Below are positions 17,483-27,388 of a stretch of DNA of 32,000 nt, in pieces. The stretch comes from Trichodesmium erythraeum IMS101. GTDB taxonomy: Bacteria; Cyanobacteriota; Cyanobacteriia; Cyanobacteriales; Microcoleaceae. A program made the translations under genes and the position numbers. Under the pieces are notes generated by a model that ran no database searches, was not told the origin of the DNA, and saw only the letters and a program-made list of their open reading frames with translations. How positions within the stretch are numbered: the first letter of the stretch is position 1; every line of letters starts with the position of its first letter. The DNA lies in the NCBI RefSeq assembly GCF_000014265.1, contig NC_008312.1, forward strand, positions 150,001 through 182,000. The letters are read 5' to 3'.

Positions 17483-20400
17483 TTAAGAGAAATTATGAAA
17501 AATTTTCTTAAAAATAGATGCTACAACAACTGCTGAAAGTTTATCCTTAATACTCTTACAAGCATAATCACCATATTTTTCCCGAACAGAGCGATCGCAC
17601 AGAAATTTCATAAACTCTGCTGCTTGATCCAGATCTGGTTCTGCCCACCGAGTACCTCTGGGATAAGCGCCATAACTCCTATCAGTTTCAATAACCTCAG
17701 CTTCCACCAAAAAAGAATTAGAATTATCCATAAAGTCTAAATTGGCTGAGTATTTGGTAGCAATAACTGGTTTTCCCATTGCCATCGCCTCTGCCAAAGT
17801 CAATCCAAAGCCTTCGGACCTGTGCAAAGAAACATAAACATCTAAACAGTTCATTAGTCTGAGAGTCTTAGCTCGATGGTAAGTTTCCTCTATCCAGATA
17901 ACATTCAAACCATCTGACTCTAATTTTAGCATTTCATAATCATAATTACCGGGGACTGGAGAACTTACCTTTAAAAGCAATACCACATCCTCAGAACTCT
18001 TAAAAGCTTTTTTAAAAGCTTTAATCAGTCCTCGCGGGTTTTTTCTCTCCAGACTACTTTTCTGGTCAAAGAAAAAGCCAAATAATACCTGATCTGTGGG
18101 TAAGTTAAACTCACTACGATCAGAAGTTATAGAATCTAGTGCTGCAAAATCTATAACATGAGGAACTACTCTAACAGGTTTATCTACCTTTTTGCCAATA
18201 GCTGCTGCTGAATATTCACTAGGTGTCCATATTTCATCAAATCCCTTAGCTGCTCTTGCTTGAGAGGTAGGTAACTCTTCTGTTTCCCAAACCCAATAAC
18301 CAATATTTTTTCTACCTTGCCAATAAAAATCTGGTAGAATTTTGTGAACCTGCCCCACGCTATCAGCATTTACTACTGTTATGTTAGCTCCCTTGCCTGG
18401 TAGAGGCCAACCCATCAATAGAAGTTTATTTTCTTTATCAAAAAAGGTATCTTTATCAATGTAGGTATTAGGAACTATTATTTTTGAATAATTAACTTCG
18501 ACTGCCTTGAGAGTATGCTCCATAGACCTAGCAGATTGTCCCATACCTGTAGTAGCGTCGAAATTTCCTGCTACATTAACAACAAAATCGTCCCCATAGG
18601 TTTGAATTTCTGCTTCTAGTTTATCTATCCATTTTATAACTGCTTTACTTTGGGATGGAAGATTATGAATATTGGGGTTTTCCTTGAGGTAATCATGTAG
18701 TTCCTGAAGATTTTCTTTCGATTGAAAAGCATCTGGAAATAAATGTTTTAGCAGTCCTTGACTCCTGTAGAAAGCCTCTAGCTGAGATAAGGGAGTAGGG
18801 GCTTTTTCTGAGGCTAAAAATTCTATAATTGCATTCTTCTCCTCCTGATTTTCTGCCAACTCTAAACTTTTGATAATTTTGTCTATTTCAAATAAATTGG
18901 CAGTACTACCAGTTAATTGTCTTAGATAGGAATTGTACAATAAATTAATGACTGTTAGCTCTTTTTGTTGAACTTCGCAGACTAAATCAAACCACAAACA
19001 TTCATCAATATCTATATTTGGCAAAGAAGTTAAATTAGACTTTAGCCATTCCAGGAATTTCTCACGTACTTTAGGAAGATGAATATTACAAAATGCACTT
19101 TGTAAGTCAGGGCGTAAAAAGTAAAGATTGAGAATTTTTAAATACCCACCACGAGCTTTTTTAAACTTTTCTATTTCTTCTGTTTTTAAATTCTCTTCTC
19201 TAGGGCCAGAATTTTTTAACCAAGCACAAAAGCGATCATAACTTTGAGGGTCACTAACAAAATTTGGATATGCTGTAACTACATCTGTTCTTCTACGGAG
19301 AATTTTCTGTAGATCTTCAATAATGTTTGTTTTAACCCAATATTGTTTAAATTTATGACATAATTCGTCAATATTGTGTTCTGTGGCTCCCCTTTCTTCT
19401 AGCCAATTAATAAATCCTTCATCCAAAAAATTATTAGAAGCATTAGGAAAAGCAGCCGCTACATCAGGTCTAAATTTTAAGAGAGATGTTATGATTGGGG
19501 GAGTATTTTTTCCTGATAAATATGGAGATGGAGTCATCAAAAATTTACAAAACTCATCTGCTTCAAATTTAGGACTAGGAAAGGGTATATTTTTGATAAT
19601 TAGTTGCCTGAGAGTGTAATTAATTAGCTCGCAAGCCTTAATACCATTAGGTAGTTTTCCATAGGCATAAGGAAAATTTTTAGCTTTTGAATAGCCCCAC
19701 TTCAACATTTTATTTGCATACCCGTCACAAAGTTCTTTAACCGTAGGTAGATCATATAAATTATGTCTTGTTTGATGCTTAGATAACTTATTTCTGTTTT
19801 TGGGAGAGTAACCGCTAAAGTGGAAAAAGGCTAAAGGTCTGCCATCAACTAAATATTCATCGCCGATTTTTTCTACAGTGCGATCGTGTAAATTCCAATA
19901 TGCCACATTGTAAGAGGGATCATGAAGAATATAGGTATCTGGAAAATACCCGGGAATCAAATCCATCCATTTTTGATCTACAAAAAGACCATTAGGAATA
20001 TCAACCACACAATCCAAATGTAATTTTTCCATCCACCACTTGAGTAACTCAAGAGAATGTTGATTCTTTTTGAGACCAATAAAACCTAGATTATAAGTTC
20101 CACTTTGTAGAATTTGCACTTCTGAAGGGGAATAATTGTCTCGAAATGGCTTTCGCATATGAGGTATTAAAACTGTCGTGTTAGTTCTTAAAGCATTCCA
20201 AATTGCATCTAGGGGACGAAATATCTGAATATCAGGATCAATGTAAACCAAATTTTCTATATCGTCGTATTTCTCCAACAAATATTTAAGAACGAAAGGT
20301 TTAACAGCCGTATTGAGTTCAAGAATGGTATAATGATAAGGAAAAGTATCGGCGGAAGGCAGAGGAACGTCTTCCATTGTTAATAATTGAAACTGTTCCT

Positions 20401-23400
20401 GAGCTGGCTCAAAATAACCATCTACCTGATCGACTAGCAACACAAAGAAACGAGCTTGGGGATGATGCTCAAGGAAAGTTTCGCATAAAGTTCGTGCTTG
20501 AGGCAAATAATTTTTAGATACCATGGTAATAGCAGCAATTGAAGTATTCCTCACCCTCTCTACTTCATTTCCGTGTGGCAGGTGAATTAAATCTCTTTGA
20601 ATTTCCTGGGTAGAATAGTTACTATTTTCCTCTATTTTTTGCTGCTGGTTTTGTTGGCTATAAGTTTCTTTAAGACCTGTTTGAAGTTCTTGATTTTCTG
20701 GAATTTGCTTCAGTCCCTGTCGATAAACAGAAATAGCTTCTGACCATTTTTGGCCATCCCTGAAAACTTGACCCAAAAGTAAGTAAGCTTCTAAAAAACT
20801 GGGGTTTAAGGCGATCGCTCGGCGATAACAAGTCACAGCTTCTCTGTGCTGCTCTTCTTGTAAAAACTCACTTCCTAAATTAAAATGTTGTTCTGCCGTT
20901 GCCAAACTTGCCTCTAAACTCAAAGCTTTAAACCATGACTCCCTAGCTTCTTTTTCCCTTCCTTTTTCCTGAAAAACTCTAGCTAAGTTTTGGTAAACTT
21001 TTCCCAAGTTAGGATTAATGTCAATTGCTTTTTCGTAACTAGTAATTGCTTGGTCAAATTCCTTTTTTTCTAGCCAAACATTTCCCAACCCAAAATACAA
21101 TTCAGGATTATTTGGTTCTATCTCAATTGCCTTGAAATAGTTCTCTACATTATTTGGTTCTTGTTCAATAGCTCTAAGATAATAATTCAGGACAGACTGC
21201 AAACCAGATTTGACTTTTTGATGTAGAGCATTATCTAACTTTTGTTTGGCTTCCGGCAGCTCTAACTTGAATTCTAAAGCCTGACTATAAGCAATAATAG
21301 CCCCTTCCCAATCTTCCAACTTCACCAACACATCTCCCAAATTATAATAATTCCAAGGAAAATCCGGATTCAACTCAATAGCCTGATGATAAACACCAGC
21401 CGCTTCTGGCCACTTCTCTAACCTAACTAAAACATCCCCCAAATTATTATAAGACCAACAAAAATCAGGATTCAACTCAATAGCCCTACCATAAGCACCA
21501 GCCGCCTCCGACCACTTCTCTAACCTAACTAAAACATCCCCCAAATTATTATAAGACCAACAAAAATCAGGATTCAATTCAATAGATTTCCTATAAGCAT
21601 TAGTAGCTGCTTCTAACTTCTCTGTTTCCTGGAATAAACTACCTAATTTATGATGTACTGTCCATAATTGAGGCTGAATTTCAATAGCTTTTCTATAAAC
21701 CTTTATAGCCTCTTCTTTCTCCCCTTTATTTCTTAAAATATCACCCAAATACTGATAAGCCTCAGCCAAATTGGGGTCGATGAAAATTACTTTCTGGTAA
21801 GCATTTATTGCCTCAGAAAGTTTCCCTGACTTAGCTAATATTTCAGCCAATTTTAAATAAGAAATAGAAGAACTAGGATTTAGTTTTATAGCATAATATA
21901 AAGCCGAAATTCCCTCTGAAAAATTTTCTTGCTCAATTAAAATATTCCCTAAATTATGATAATTTTCCCAGATATTTGGCTGAATTTCAATCAATTTTTT
22001 ATAGATAATTACAGCTTTTTTAAGCTGGTTTTGGTTGACAAAAATATTAGCTAAAGAGTAGTAAGCCTCTGTCAAATATGGATCAATTTCAAGAGCTTTA
22101 TAGTAATAAGTAATAGCCTCTTCTAATTTGCCTGGTAAAAGAGCTAATATATTTCCCATCTCATAATTAGCACCTGAGTCGTTAGGATTTAGTTTCAGTG
22201 CTTGAGCATAACAATTAATAGCATTATCTAATTGATTTTTCTGTTGAAAAGCTTTCCCCATTATCTGATAAGCTTCTGAGTTTTTTTCAACTTTAATTAC
22301 TGAATAGCAGATAGCGATCGCCTCAGAAAACAATCCTTCTAAATAATAAGTCTTAGCTTGTTTTAATAGTTCTTTAACTTCTGCTTTTTGAGAATAATTA
22401 ATCTGATTTGTCACTATCTGATTCAACTGCAGTAATTCACCACTTTTCCGTTCAATTTCTGCTGCACTTAGTTGATGACCATTCTGATATTTATCTTCTA
22501 ATTTTGCTGAGATATTAAAATTCACATCACCCTTTAAACTCTTCTGATTTTGATTTTTATTTTCCCAAACTTTATCTTTAATTTCTGCTGCACTTAGTTG
22601 ATGACCATTCTGATATTTATCTTCTAATTTTGCTGATGTATTAGAATTCACATCACCCTTTAAATTATTCTGATTTTGATTTTTATCTGCCCCAACTTTA
22701 TCTTTAATTTCTGCTGCACTTAGTTGATGAATATTCTGATATTTATCTTCTAATTTTGCTGATATATTAGAATTCACATCACCCTTTAAATTATTCTGAT
22801 TTTGATTTTTATCTGCCCAAATTTCCTTAGCTTTATGGTAATAAATAACTGCTTCATCCCATCTTCCGAGACATTTTAATCCCAAACTAAGATTATAGTA
22901 AACTGTACCCAAATTAGGATTTAACTCTATAGAATTTTGATAACAAGATACTGCCTGAGCAATTTTTCCTTTCTCATACAATTTATTTCCTAAATTAAAA
23001 TGGTCATTAGCAGTTACTTTTTTAGGTTCTAAAGAGTAAGCTTGGTACCAAAAATCTAGAACTCCTAATGTTTCACCTAACTCAGTCAAAACCATCGCTA
23101 ATTTGTAATAATTCTCAGCCACCTTTAGTTTTATTTCTAACGCTTTTTCATAACAATAAATCACCAAATTCAAAATTTTATACTCAACATATAAATTGCC
23201 TAATACTATATAAATTAAACCATAACTTTGCTGAATTTCCAGAGCTGTTTTGTAACTGCTCTCAGCTTGTTTTATTTCCCCAATTTTTTTCTGAGAATCT
23301 CCGATAATTATGTAAGCTGCTGCTACATCTATTTTAAGAGAAATCGCTTGCTGACATTGAGAAATTGCTTTTTCATAAAATCCCTCCTCATAATATTTTT

Positions 23401-26400
23401 GAGCTTCCTGAATATAAACATTAGGAATATTTCTCACACCATTAGATGTCATATCTTTTAAAAGAAACGTTGAATTTATTTGTTTTACCTCATTGACTTT
23501 GGAAATTTCTTTCAGTTTTAAAGTGGAGTGAATAATCTGATTATTATTAGCTTTTTTTGGACTATTCATAACGGTTTTTTCTCCCTCTATATTCCCATAA
23601 ACATTAGTGACATCTGCTTCGATGATTAGAGGTTTATTGGGAGCTAAAGTTTTCGTAATTTCCTTATAGTTTGTAACCCTTTTATCCTGACTATTTTCTA
23701 ACACAGATAAAGATGATTCTAGATAATTAACAGAGTCCGATAAATCACTTTTTAAATCAAAAGTTGATATCACTCTACTAACTCCTTTACTAACAACTCT
23801 TTGAAAATTTTCAGGTTTCTGAATAATATGAATTGTATCATCAGCCCGAACCTGCTGAATTATTCCCTGACTATTTTGGTGATTTTCTCCTATTAGTAAA
23901 TTGAGAGAATTTTCGAGATTTTGCCAATAATTAGGAAACACTTTTGTAGTAGGTTTCTTTGTTCCTTGCAGTTTTAATGCTTCCCCTAAACTTTCATAAG
24001 CTCCTAATAAATTAGGATTTAATTCTATCGCCCGACAATAGCACGATATTGCTTGAGAAATTACCTTTTGTTGCAGCAGACTATTTCCTAATATTAAATG
24101 TTCTTCTGCTGTAGCTTTTCCAGGCTCTAAACTGTAGGCTTGATACAAACAGTTATCACCTTTTGTCTTCTTACCAACTTTTCTCCAAGCTATAGCTAGT
24201 TGACGGTAAGCATCAGCATAATTTGGCTGGATAACCAAAGATTTTTGATAACATTTAATTGCTTCTATCCATTGTTCCTGTTGAGCATATAAACTACCGA
24301 TATTCAGATAAATTTCTGGGTCATTTTTTTCTAAAGAAAGAAATTTTTTATAGGACTGCCAAGCTGCTTCTACTTCCCCTTGAGATTGCAATCTTTTGCC
24401 TAACTTTTTGTAGTATAAAGTTAATTTTATGGCTTGATTTTCTGGAGTTATTTTTTGATTAACAGGTTCTAAATATTCAGCCTTTATCGAAAATTTTTCC
24501 GCCTCAGTATAGCTGCCAATTTTTTGATAAATTCTGGCTAAGTTTCGGTAAACTCCGGCAAATTTTGGTTGAATTTTTAGAGCTTTTTGATAATAACTTA
24601 TTGCTTCTTGCCACTGTTCTTTTTTTACAGATAATGTGCCTAAGTTAGCATAAGCTTCTGCAAAATTTGGCTGATATTCTATAGCTTTTGTATACCAATA
24701 CCAGGCGGTTTCTATTTGACCTTGAGCATAAAAAACATTCCCTAAAGTTTTACAAGCTGGGCTATAATCTGGTTGAGATTTTAAGGCTTGAGTACAGGTA
24801 GTTTTGGCTAATTCTAATTCTTTTTGCTTTAAGTATAATTCTGCTTGTTTATTTAACTGACCAGCTATTTCTTGGGAGTTAACTTTTAATGATATTTTTT
24901 GACCTACCTGTTTCATCGGTAGCTTCTTCTTTTCCTGAGATATTTTTTTCCTAATACCTACTTGTTGTTCTTTCTGAATAGACGCTTTTATCTCACTACT
25001 GAAAACTGTTTCTAGTATTTTTTTCTTCTCAATAATGCCAAGAACTTTTAGAGCTTTTTCTAAAGAATTAAGATTCAGGATAATATCTTCTGTCAGAGGA
25101 TTTTGATACATTAATTTCCGGATGGGAGCACAACCAAAATCTTCTCCTTTTAAATAGTAATGTTCCAGTCCTATTTTTTGGCTAATCCCACAATAATAAT
25201 GTCTAATATAGTTAGGTGATACTAATTCTATAACTTTAGTTCCTCTAGGAGAAAATATAATATTTGTCAGTCCACTACCATGAGCTCCAATAATCACTTT
25301 GGCATGAGAAAATATGGCTATCTGCTCTTTCAAATTCATTGAGTCTGGCTGAATACAAACAAAACCTATTTCACTTAATTTTAAGAGTACTTCTTCTTCA
25401 TTGAAAACTCGTCTATATCGTGAATTATTTCTACTTATATATATCCTTTCTGGATAGAATGAGCTGGTTTTATTTTCTGTAAATATCTCCTGTTTTATTC
25501 TTGATAAAAATACCTGACGGTGAAATTCTAAACTCCAGGATGTTAGCCTACCTAAATCTCCAGGAAATGAGGGAACAATTAATTTTTTAGCTTGGATATA
25601 AGGGTGCTGTTCGCTGGAGATAATTTTATTTTGGGGAATACCTAATACATTCAAACTTTCCCTTTGAAATGGCATCTGATAATTACTAACTAAAAAAAAA
25701 TCTATTTCTTTTAAGTCTATGCCATGAAGCTTTAGAATTTCTAACCTCGGCAATATATCTACCATCCAATGAAAATATACATGGTCATATAATCCTGATA
25801 ATACTGCTACTTTACCATCTATTTTTTCTAATTCTGGTAGTTCTTCTAAGTCAAAAATTTCTTGTTTATTTTCATCAGAATTTTGACATCCTAGCTGACC
25901 TGCTTCGTTCCAGGAAAGCTCTTTTACAAGTTGATTATCTTGATTGATAATTGCTATTGCATTATTAATCATCCCATATTTTTTCTGGGGTACAACCCAT
26001 GCCCTACCTGATAGTAGTTGAGCTACAAATGTTTCTGTTTCTGCTCTTTTTAATGAGTTATTTTGGCTGAGAATATTTGTCGTTGTTTGATTTTCTGAAC
26101 AGCTATAAATTCTACTGCCTAAGTGGAGCATATTAAATTCTTGAAAATTTTGTTCCCACCATGGTCTACTGTTTAATCTTTCACAGGATGATGATAAAAA
26201 TTTCGGCTTTTTCTGAGCTTTTTTTGATTTTGATAAACTCTGCAAATTCTCTAATATTTCGGGATGCTCTGGATAAGTTTCTAATCCTAGATTAGTAATA
26301 ATAATTGCTGAATTTATCAGATTTTGCTTGACTAAACTATTACCTAGCTTGACATAATCTTCTGCTGTTACTTGTTCCAGTTCTAAAGCTTTTTTATAAT

Positions 26401-27388: not shown

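Follow-up and report, generated by a model that had tools for sequence, protein, structure and literature searches.

WbbB unites on one polypeptide an N-terminal terminating glycosyltransferase (GT) and two C-terminal polymerase GTs, with a coiled-coil ruler between them, and ORF6 of Klebsiella pneumoniae O7 combines a methyltransferase-kinase, a coiled coil and two GTs (PMC11231755). In Cps1B, Cps3D and Cps7D, tetratricopeptide repeat (TPR) domains provide oligomerisation and contact with the catalytic domain (PMC5974469, PMC11666461), and Bcs3 has been described as a multi-enzyme machine (PMC10299916). Here, we analysed a stretch of 32,000 nucleotides from Trichodesmium erythraeum IMS101 (contig NC_008312.1, positions 150,001 to 182,000 of the forward strand; hereafter the window) that contains the gene Tery_0122, whose product of 3301 amino acids (aa) holds a GT61, a GT-A and a GT4 domain separated by arrays of TPRs. 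We conclude that Tery_0122 is an unusually large, lineage-specific fusion variant of the known multi-module polysaccharide synthases and embodies no new principle of glycan synthesis. With moderate confidence, we read it as a soluble protein in which several GTs together synthesise an extracellular polysaccharide, sulfated or methylated, and which arose from a two-gene fusion. A sequence-only reading of the same window had regarded such an assembly line as not normally described for glycan synthesis, a view that the well-described WbbB, ORF6, Cps3D, Cps1B and Bcs3 contradict.

WbbB (K. pneumoniae O12 / Raoultella terrigena) and ORF6 share with Tery_0122 a distal N-terminal enzyme, a long helical spacer and two C-terminal GTs. 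They are also soluble cytoplasmic enzymes of polysaccharide pathways, a side of the membrane that is predicted from sequence for Tery_0122, and their types of catalytic module are likewise spread variably over single- and multi-module proteins. They differ in their spacer, which is a coiled coil rather than TPR arrays and polar linkers, in their transferases (GT99 and other GTs in WbbB and two GT2 domains in ORF6, versus GT61, GT8-like and GT4 domains), and in their size (approximately 1,100-1,400 aa versus 3,301 aa). Their genes adjoin wzm/wzt, whereas the Tery_0122 locus, with urtE/urtD as neighbours, has no linked exporter. Cps3D, Cps7D, Cps1B and Bcs3, which come from group 2 capsule loci of Gram-negative pathogens, resemble Tery_0122 in combining TPRs with more than one transferase domain (two in their case) in one chain; their TPRs are non-catalytic, and their catalytic domains fold independently and complement in trans. 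However, they contain a TagF-like polyol-phosphate transferase, whereas no segment of Tery_0122 had a Pfam match to a TagF-like polyol- or hexose-phosphate transferase, and they have one TPR domain of approximately 250-400 aa, compared with four arrays of >1,100 aa in total in Tery_0122. In OGT (GT41), TPRs lie N-terminal to a GT-B catalytic domain, as in Tery_0122, but no GT41 domain was among the Pfam matches of the latter, and OGT, EOGT and POMGNT2 have a single catalytic domain and act on proteins, whereas Tery_0122 has three GT domains. Dictyostelium PgtB (PMC13123520), likened to Tery_0122 by description only, also carries several GT domains in one chain, including GT4 and GT61-like domains, but is eukaryotic and has no reported TPR arrays.

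Tery_0122 is a single ATG-to-stop open reading frame (ORF) of 3301 codons (3301 aa plus stop), which confirms the intact 9.9-kb frame first noticed in the sequence. The chance of such a frame was computed from composition as ~1e-111, with ~7% of random codons being stops. Its product had an exact public match (ABG49619.1 / WP_011610017.1 / UniRef Q11A55) annotated as 'glycosyl transferase, group 1' on the finished 7.75-Mb chromosome, and a published expression table places the gene at chromosome positions 167483-177388 (-). The GC content of the region (~33%) was not deviant. The maximum Kyte-Doolittle score was 1.43 and no segment reached the transmembrane level; by hydrophobicity, Tery_0122 is predicted to be a soluble protein. 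Literature searches on Tery_0122, on Trichodesmium TPR glycosyltransferases and on giant genes gave no relevant match.

Evidence on the origin of the gene came from Planktothrix agardhii, where the same domains occur in the same order in two adjacent genes. Gene A (WP_235752203.1; 1696 aa, TPR-GT61-TPR) was colinear with aa 12-1491 of Tery_0122 at 32% identity, and gene B (WP_235752202.1, P0363; 1367 aa, TPR-GT-A-helical-GT4), located 45 bp downstream of gene A, was 64% identical to aa 1839-3298. The pair was kept in several P. agardhii strains. Downstream of it, in a syntenic locus, lay genes for a sulfotransferase and for an 821-aa TPR-GT2-GT4 protein, the orthologue of Tery_0115 in the window (61% identical over 813 aa). 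From the colinearity of this two-gene locus, Tery_0122 arose in the Trichodesmium lineage when two neighbouring genes of a polysaccharide locus conserved in cyanobacteria were joined in frame. The 3 x 42-aa repeat, which the Planktothrix pair lacks, falls in the interval of the gene boundary (aa ~1500-1840); the pair also has fewer TPR units, is accompanied by a sulfotransferase of another family than Tery_0120, and is likewise uncharacterised. When a concatenated query was searched, no protein outside Trichodesmium combined GT61 and GT-A among the best 120 matches.

Variation within Trichodesmium bears on the same question. Other contigs of Trichodesmium metagenome-assembled genomes (MAGs) carried aa 1 to ~2040, including GT61, or aa ~1744/1970 to 3301 as open frames. 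Among the GTDB species representatives, a contig scan (which did not recover IMS101 itself) found one related locus, in the Trichodesmium genome MAG_R02. Its contig lacked a 2.1-kb block corresponding to window positions ~24946-27043 (aa ~116-814, which takes in the whole of GT61 and the greater part of TPR array 1), leaving two ORFs, a remnant of 122 aa and one of 2464 aa whose start codon corresponds to M824. The absence of the block may reflect either a real deletion or a collapsed assembly, and the M824 start is more readily accounted for by a restart behind an out-of-frame deletion of 2.1 kb. We also considered M824 as the fusion point, given this start in MAG_R02 and the end-to-end alignment of aa 1-785 with a 971-aa Microcoleus vaginatus protein that ends right after GT61; this candidate was rejected because Planktothrix sets the boundary at aa ~1500-1840.

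These natural variants also speak to whether the single chain is required. In an obligate assembly line, the domain order would be the sugar order, the glycan would be handed from domain to domain, and fusion would be indispensable. Consistent with this, three competent GT domains stand in a fixed order, the fused frame is kept in several Trichodesmium genomes, and Bcs3 demonstrates that a protected reaction chamber can be built from a multi-enzyme chain (PMC10299916). However, Planktothrix encodes the same system as two proteins, MAG_R02 has it without GT61, the C-terminal module is normally a free-standing protein (see below), and single-domain mutants of Cps complement each other in trans (PMC5974469). 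The need for one chain that the sequence-only reading had implied did not hold, and we consider an obligate assembly line very unlikely.

The GT61 domain was covered by PF04577 (Glyco_transf_61) over the whole profile at aa 538-720 (111-114 bits versus a cutoff of 27), with the HGSGLTN motif located at aa 701-709. A PDB sequence search with this region retrieved POMGNT2 and EOGT, and the AlphaFold2 (AF2) model of the domain (predicted local distance difference test score, pLDDT, 88; predicted template modelling score, pTM, 0.88) had POMGNT2 chains as its only strong Foldseek matches (E 7e-10, probability 1.0). According to this model, the domain is a GT-B fold, the fold that the EOGT crystal structure established as typical of GT61 (PMC13123520). 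H540, R653, R659, Q689 and H703, as well as Y538 and W541, were invariant in 81 GT61 homologues, and R659 aligned with an Arg of POMGNT2. The residues of the GT61 uridine diphosphate (UDP) site are N-R-R plus His, Gln and His (PMC13123520); Tery_0122 shares its predicted fold with EOGT and POMGNT2, and probably also their R-R/His/Gln/His nucleotide-site residues. The invariant Y538 may indicate a Y-R-R-type variant like those reported in PMC13123520. The nearest GT61 relatives were stand-alone GT61 or TPR-GT61 proteins of Microcoleus, Planktothrix and Okeania.

The middle domain was not covered by any Pfam model and was recognised only through structure prediction. Its match to GT8 (PF01501) remained below threshold (14.5 bits versus a cutoff of 24.3), sub-threshold GT8 matches appeared in only 7 of 39 family members (best E 0.022), and PDB sequence searches with this region, using either a single sequence or a profile, gave no match. 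The AF2 model of aa 2270-2940 was of high confidence (pLDDT 94.2, pTM 0.87), and its best Foldseek matches were LARGE1, 3tzt (GT8), LgtC, glycogenin, GlyE, XXT1 and the blood-group enzymes GTA/GTB (probability 1.0, target-normalised template modelling scores 0.5-0.6). All best PDB matches were retaining GT-A enzymes (GT8, GT6 and GT34). The middle domain is, by its predicted fold, a GT8-like GT-A domain and is no GT8 member by sequence. The YIDPDIQ motif lies at aa 2382-2388, and an alignment of 80 homologues revealed the invariant residues Y2382, D2384-P-D2386, H2410 and D2471-Q-x-W-x-D2476, as well as F2521, H2523, S2525 and G2526 of an F-x-H-x-S-G motif. Downstream of the GT-A core, the model was all-helical up to GT4, with four ~60-aa modules of the RPD..AFPN type at aa 2639, 2699, 2758 and 2879; these modules had no Pfam match and were kept across the stand-alone family described below.

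The C-terminal domain matched Glycos_transf_1 (PF00534; aa 3114-3229, E 4e-12, 46-49 bits versus a cutoff of 26.4) and also PF13692, and a PDB profile search of the region retrieved GT4 enzymes. Its E-x7-E motif, EGFGLTLAE, was intact at aa 3192-3200, as was the D2384-P-D2386 of the GT-A domain. On the basis of these motifs, all three GT domains look catalytically competent. The sequence-only reading thus fared well in its layout: each motif that it quoted was found at its place, its domain order with four TPR arrays was correct, the three GT domains retained their catalytic motifs in one frame with TPR arrays between them, and the structural searches on the GT61 and GT-A segments both retrieved known GT structures. 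Its claim of three unrelated folds requires correction, because GT61 and GT4 are both GT-B, so that two folds are present, with GT-A contributed by the middle domain.

The repeats were delimited with Pfam scans of the whole protein and of segments, a self-trained TPR hidden Markov model (HMM) and Tandem Repeats Finder (TRF); a BLAST self-comparison for internal repeats gave the identity match only, and the self-trained HMM was used instead. Pfam reported many TPR families across the whole protein, and the HMM delimited ~34 TPR units in four arrays (Table 1). TPR array 1 was colinear with the TPR part of the TPR-GT61 proteins of Microcoleus and Planktothrix. Near-identical 102-bp tandem TPR units (x 2.6) were located at 21330-21599, inside TPR array 4. 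The domain-free linker that had been noticed at ~23440-23950 corresponds to the polar linker at aa 1128-1330, which had no Pfam hit above cutoff and was among the least conserved segments (63% aa identity with MAG_R02). No Pfam family of coiled-coil type exceeded its cutoff in Tery_0122, no dedicated coiled-coil predictor having been run; the sole match of this type was STAT_alpha in the polar linker (16.5 bits versus a cutoff of 27.5, E 0.0088).

The C-terminal 1,030 aa of Tery_0122 (GT-A-helical-GT4) matched thousands of stand-alone proteins of ~1,000 aa, at ~45% identity and 97% coverage. When 1.84 billion representatives were searched exhaustively, 7,632 family representatives were returned at E <= 1e-30, counted at 50% clustering; the best was P0363, the product of Planktothrix gene B, in which TPRs are fused to the module. 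No Pfam model exists for the first ~650 residues of this stand-alone family. The genomic contexts of stand-alone relatives included Poly_export, ABC2_membrane, ABC_tran, KpsC/S-type Capsule_synth, rml genes and Wzy_C, as well as methyltransferases (FkbM-type and others) and, in four of the five clusters, sulfotransferases; every context of the module that we examined was a polysaccharide (capsule- or O-antigen-like) cluster. Some members carry such partners in the same chain, namely P0453 (sulfotransferase - coiled coil - GT-A - GT4), P0403 (sulfotransferase - GT-A - GT4 - methyltransferase) and P0388 (methyltransferase - TPR - GT-A - GT4 - methyltransferase), and P0430 (2437 aa) combines GT-A with several GT4 domains. 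The in-chain fusions tie the module functionally, as far as domain composition can indicate, to sulfation and methylation of its product. One outlier, P0256, was a tandem duplication of the GT-A-like domain.

Named hits among the best 120 relatives of the C-terminal module were all non-cyanobacterial and mostly proteobacterial, and Planktothrix was the only close cyanobacterial relative found. This pattern hints at an old horizontal acquisition of the module, though the region does not stand out in its GC content. Sulfotransferase genes adjoined the module in the proteobacterial or metagenomic loci L001, L002, L004 and L005 (Neiella marina, a Desulforhopalus MAG and others). Sulfated polysaccharides of bacteria have been stated to be exclusive to cyanobacteria (PMC8205485), a statement with which these predicted sulfotransferase-module clusters of Proteobacteria are at odds. 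In the same study, Maeda et al. reported sulfotransferases to be abundant in Trichodesmium and such genes to lie mostly inside extracellular polysaccharide clusters (PMC8205485).

The likeness of the GT61 domain to animal enzymes raises the alternative of a protein O-glycosyltransferase similar to OGT or EOGT, in which the TPRs would bind proteins, GT61 would start or extend an O-glycan, and GT-A and GT4 would elongate it. Those animal GT61 enzymes that have been characterised, EOGT and POMGNT2, modify proteins or glycans attached to proteins and not polysaccharides (PMC13123520), whereas plant GT61 enzymes use the polysaccharide xylan (PMC13123520). The TPRs of OGT are reported to be its substrate-binding part, in keeping with this alternative, and one orthologue of Planktothrix gene A is annotated as 'putative UDP-GlcNAc--peptide N-acetylglucosaminyltransferase SEC'; Tery_0122, however, has no GT41 domain, as mentioned above. 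The locus also encodes a secreted S8 peptidase (Tery_0117) with by far the highest expression of the locus (1310-2283 counts per million, CPM), which would fit this alternative but is not syntenic. In MAG_R02, the syntenic place (L003 17280-19634) is occupied by a gene for a cadherin + W_rich_C protein instead, and Planktothrix has none, so the position of Tery_0117 looks like a variable slot inside a glycan locus. Together with the polysaccharide clusters, with their exporters, rml genes and sulfotransferases, in which the C-terminal module was always encountered, these points make a protein O-glycosyltransferase unlikely.

Compared with MAG_R02, aa 824-3301 (2,479 aligned codons) differed by in-frame indels of 1-6 aa only. 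The ratio of nonsynonymous to synonymous substitution rates (dN/dS) was 0.13 in GT-A, 0.23 in GT4, 0.41 in the helical region, 0.39-0.50 in the TPR arrays, 0.52 in the 42-aa repeats and 0.59 in the linker. This part of the protein is under purifying selection, as had been supposed from the intactness of the frame. GT61 was the most conserved segment among the MAGs carrying it (99.1-99.7% aa identity, compared with 92% in the linker and 81% in the 42-aa repeats). In RNA-seq data, Tery_0122 was transcribed in 7 of 7 libraries with no response to iron.

The same comparison bears on whether the gene could be an assembly artefact with collapsed TPR repeats or a decaying pseudogene. In favour of this are the near-identical TPR units and 126-bp repeats that it contains, the termini of several short-read MAG contigs, which fall within or immediately behind the TPR tandem, and the many gene relics in its neighbourhood. 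The near-identity of the tandem units accounts for the fragmentation of the whole gene in short-read assemblies. However, the genome of origin is finished, the tandem is crossed both by P0007 and by the MAG_R02 contig, which runs through it and the junction with GT-A in a single frame, and the gene is transcribed, with dN/dS well below 1 and no frameshifts. An artefact or pseudogene is therefore exceedingly improbable. One sequence behaved differently: P0005 (Trichodesmium sp. St16_bin4-tuft) followed Tery_0122 to the tandem units at ~aa 2040 and then continued into a different TPR sequence, reflecting either a chimera at the end of the contig or recombination with a TPR paralogue.

In the mechanism that we propose for the polysaccharide synthase, the GT-A domain (retaining-type) and GT4 would form a two-module polymerase making a disaccharide-type backbone on the cytoplasmic side. 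The distal GT61, by family an inverting, UDP-sugar-dependent GT-B enzyme, would add a third sugar as a branch, an adaptor or a chain-end cap. The glycan would then be methylated by Tery_0121 and sulfated by Tery_0120/0119, as their gene context suggests, and would be exported by machinery encoded elsewhere in the genome. The ~34 TPR units and the polar linkers would be non-catalytic, acting as spacers and docking surfaces that hold the catalytic modules apart, and the TPR arrays may recruit Tery_0115 and Tery_0116 as partners, by analogy with the coiled coils and TPRs of polymerases of the ATP-binding cassette (ABC)-transporter type. The sugars donated, the acceptor and the functions given to GT61 and the TPRs in this scheme are inferred.

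A more specific form of this explanation is a terminator-ruler-polymerase like WbbB, in which the C-terminal GTs would polymerise, GT61 would cap the non-reducing end when the growing chain is long enough to reach it, and ~1,450 aa of TPRs and linkers would act as the ruler of chain length. The order of parts is that of WbbB and Klebsiella O7 ORF6, with an N-terminal terminating enzyme, a helical spacer and two C-terminal polymerase GTs, and in the Klebsiella O4 terminator the coiled coil is preceded by a TPR-like bundle (PMC11231755). In P0453 and P0388, likewise, a coiled coil or TPR separates the module from a distal sulfotransferase or methyltransferase, and the spacers of Tery_0122 evolve faster than its catalytic domains yet stay in frame. 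On the other hand, its spacer consists of TPR arrays, with no coiled coil among the Pfam matches, and TPR superhelices are not known to serve as rulers. The locus has no linked ABC exporter, nor a Wzt with a carbohydrate-binding module; MAG_R02 keeps the rest under selection without GT61, and the two halves lie in different proteins in Planktothrix. The methyltransferase and the sulfotransferases are equally good terminator candidates, and we regard a WbbB-like ruler as possible but doubtful.

Several observations weigh against the polysaccharide synthase as a whole. The polymerase role of the GT-A and GT4 pair, although the most likely one, is drawn by analogy, and our searches found no characterised member of the GT-A-helical-GT4 family. 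The protein-directed activity of the characterised animal GT61 enzymes points elsewhere, as noted above. No exporter, initiating transferase or sugar-nucleotide gene was found in the window, and the ABC-2 and Wza/Wzc genes present in the genome are unlinked to the Tery_0122 locus. Expression was consistent but low (~4 CPM/kb), and Tery_0122 had no entry in the searched portions of two proteomics supplements. A conserved sulfotransferase-module pair had also to be rejected: only the pairing in the Desulforhopalus MAG was specific, where the gene immediately following the module encodes a sulfotransferase with 45% identity to Tery_0120 (E 2e-75), the sulfotransferases of L004 and Planktothrix being unrelated to Tery_0120.

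All genes downstream of Tery_0122, to Tery_0115, lie on the same strand (Table 1). Tery_0116, which contains TPRs only, is a possible scaffold partner, and Tery_0115 is the second multi-GT TPR protein of the locus. GT2-GT4 neighbours of the module in L005 and L006 were rejected as Tery_0115 orthologues, as their similarity was of a generic GT2 kind (25% identity, E 2e-8). An ABC ATPase gene upstream of Tery_0122 was rejected as a sign of an ABC-transporter pathway; NCBIfam identified its product as UrtE (324 bits versus a cutoff of 286), which occurs with UrtD and belongs to a urea importer. Inside the expected urtABCDE operon, urtE and urtD are separated by a gap of 442 bp (31212-31653), and the tag Tery_0126 is missing from the expression table.

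The description of the neighbourhood as full of pseudogenes was borne out by four relics. At 775-1294 (+), two overlapping ORFs in different frames matched DDE_Tnp_1_5 (E 2e-25) and DDE_Tnp_1 (E 8e-10), and this pair looks like a frameshifted transposase relic of an insertion sequence (IS). A 124-aa ORF at 3797-4171 (+), in a 4.9-kb ORF-poor stretch (203-5084), had only a Cas12f1-like/TnpB TNB domain (E 7e-24) and looks like a truncated TnpB of an IS200/605-type element. The hypothetical gene Tery_0114 (4499-4750, 252 bp) was 97% identical to the 3' end of Tery_0119 (14265-14516), ~10 kb away, and is by this match a duplicated gene fragment. In the 1.2-kb gap upstream of Tery_0122, positions 27877-28198 hold a 322-bp relic of a sodium:solute symporter gene (87% identical), which is intact in MAG_R02 (474 aa, L003 3477-4901).

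Table 1. Tery_0122, its parts and the neighbouring genes in the 32,000-nucleotide window (positions counted from its first letter).
Feature	Positions	Strand	Basis or remark
Tery_0122, whole ORF	17483-27388	-	ORF call and exact sequence look-up; transcribed at 33-42 CPM
TPR array 1, aa 18-363, ~9 units	26300-27337	-	Pfam and TPR HMM
GT61, aa ~440-785	25034-26071	-	PF04577, E 5e-32
Lys-rich linker, aa 786-844	24857-25033	-	contains M824, start of the MAG_R02 2464-aa ORF
TPR array 2, aa ~845-1127	24008-24856	-	TPR HMM
Polar linker, aa 1128-1330, ~200 aa	23399-24007	-	no recognisable domain
TPR array 3, aa 1331-1523	22820-23398	-	TPR HMM
3 x 42-aa repeat, aa 1524-1655	22424-22819	-	period 126 bp, 2.9 copies, 95% matches
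TPR array 4, aa 1670-2230, ~15 units	20699-22381	-	TPR HMM and TRF
GT8-like GT-A, aa ~2284-2565 (predicted fold)	19694-20539	-	80-homologue alignment, AF2, Foldseek
All-helical region, aa 2566-2930	18599-19693	-	four ~60-aa R-x-D-x4-A-F/Y-P-N modules
GT4, aa 2931-3301	17486-18598	-	PF00534, PF13692, PDB profile matches
Tery_0121, S-adenosylmethionine-dependent methyltransferase	16446-17447	-	starts 35 bp after the Tery_0122 stop
Tery_0120, sulfotransferase	15274-16119	-	domain annotation
Tery_0119, Sulfotransfer_2-like protein	14262-15149	-	domain annotation
Tery_0117, S8 subtilase with SdrD/Cna-B and W_rich_C domains	9122-13174	-	domain annotation
Tery_0116, TPR-only protein	8094-8963	-	228-314 CPM
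Tery_0115, TPR-GT2-GT4, 892 aa	5085-7763	-	second multi-GT TPR protein of the locus

A bolder version of the proposed mechanism, which we hold to be improbable, is that the TPR arrays constitute a new ruler and docking platform, with a capping GT61 ~1,450 residues from the two-GT polymerase and with sulfo- and methyltransferases recruited to them. If true, one polypeptide would determine what a sulfated cyanobacterial exopolymer is made of, how it is decorated and how long its chains become. It would also be a TPR-based counterpart of the coiled-coil WbbB/WbdD, with a polymerase from the widespread and unclassified GT8-like-helical-GT4 family, which would make sulfated glycans in Proteobacteria as well.

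The colonies of Trichodesmium, the exopolymers they produce and the way they capture dust-bound iron are important for nitrogen and carbon cycling in the ocean. The enzymes for the sulfated polymers of marine cyanobacteria are almost unknown, and the Tery_0122 locus provides a concrete candidate with testable catalytic residues. The analysis also singles out a very large, uncharacterised two-GT family that is repeatedly fused or linked to sulfotransferases and methyltransferases, including in Proteobacteria. Three natural states of the system, namely fused in IMS101, split in Planktothrix and without GT61 in MAG_R02, bear on the effect of GT fusion.

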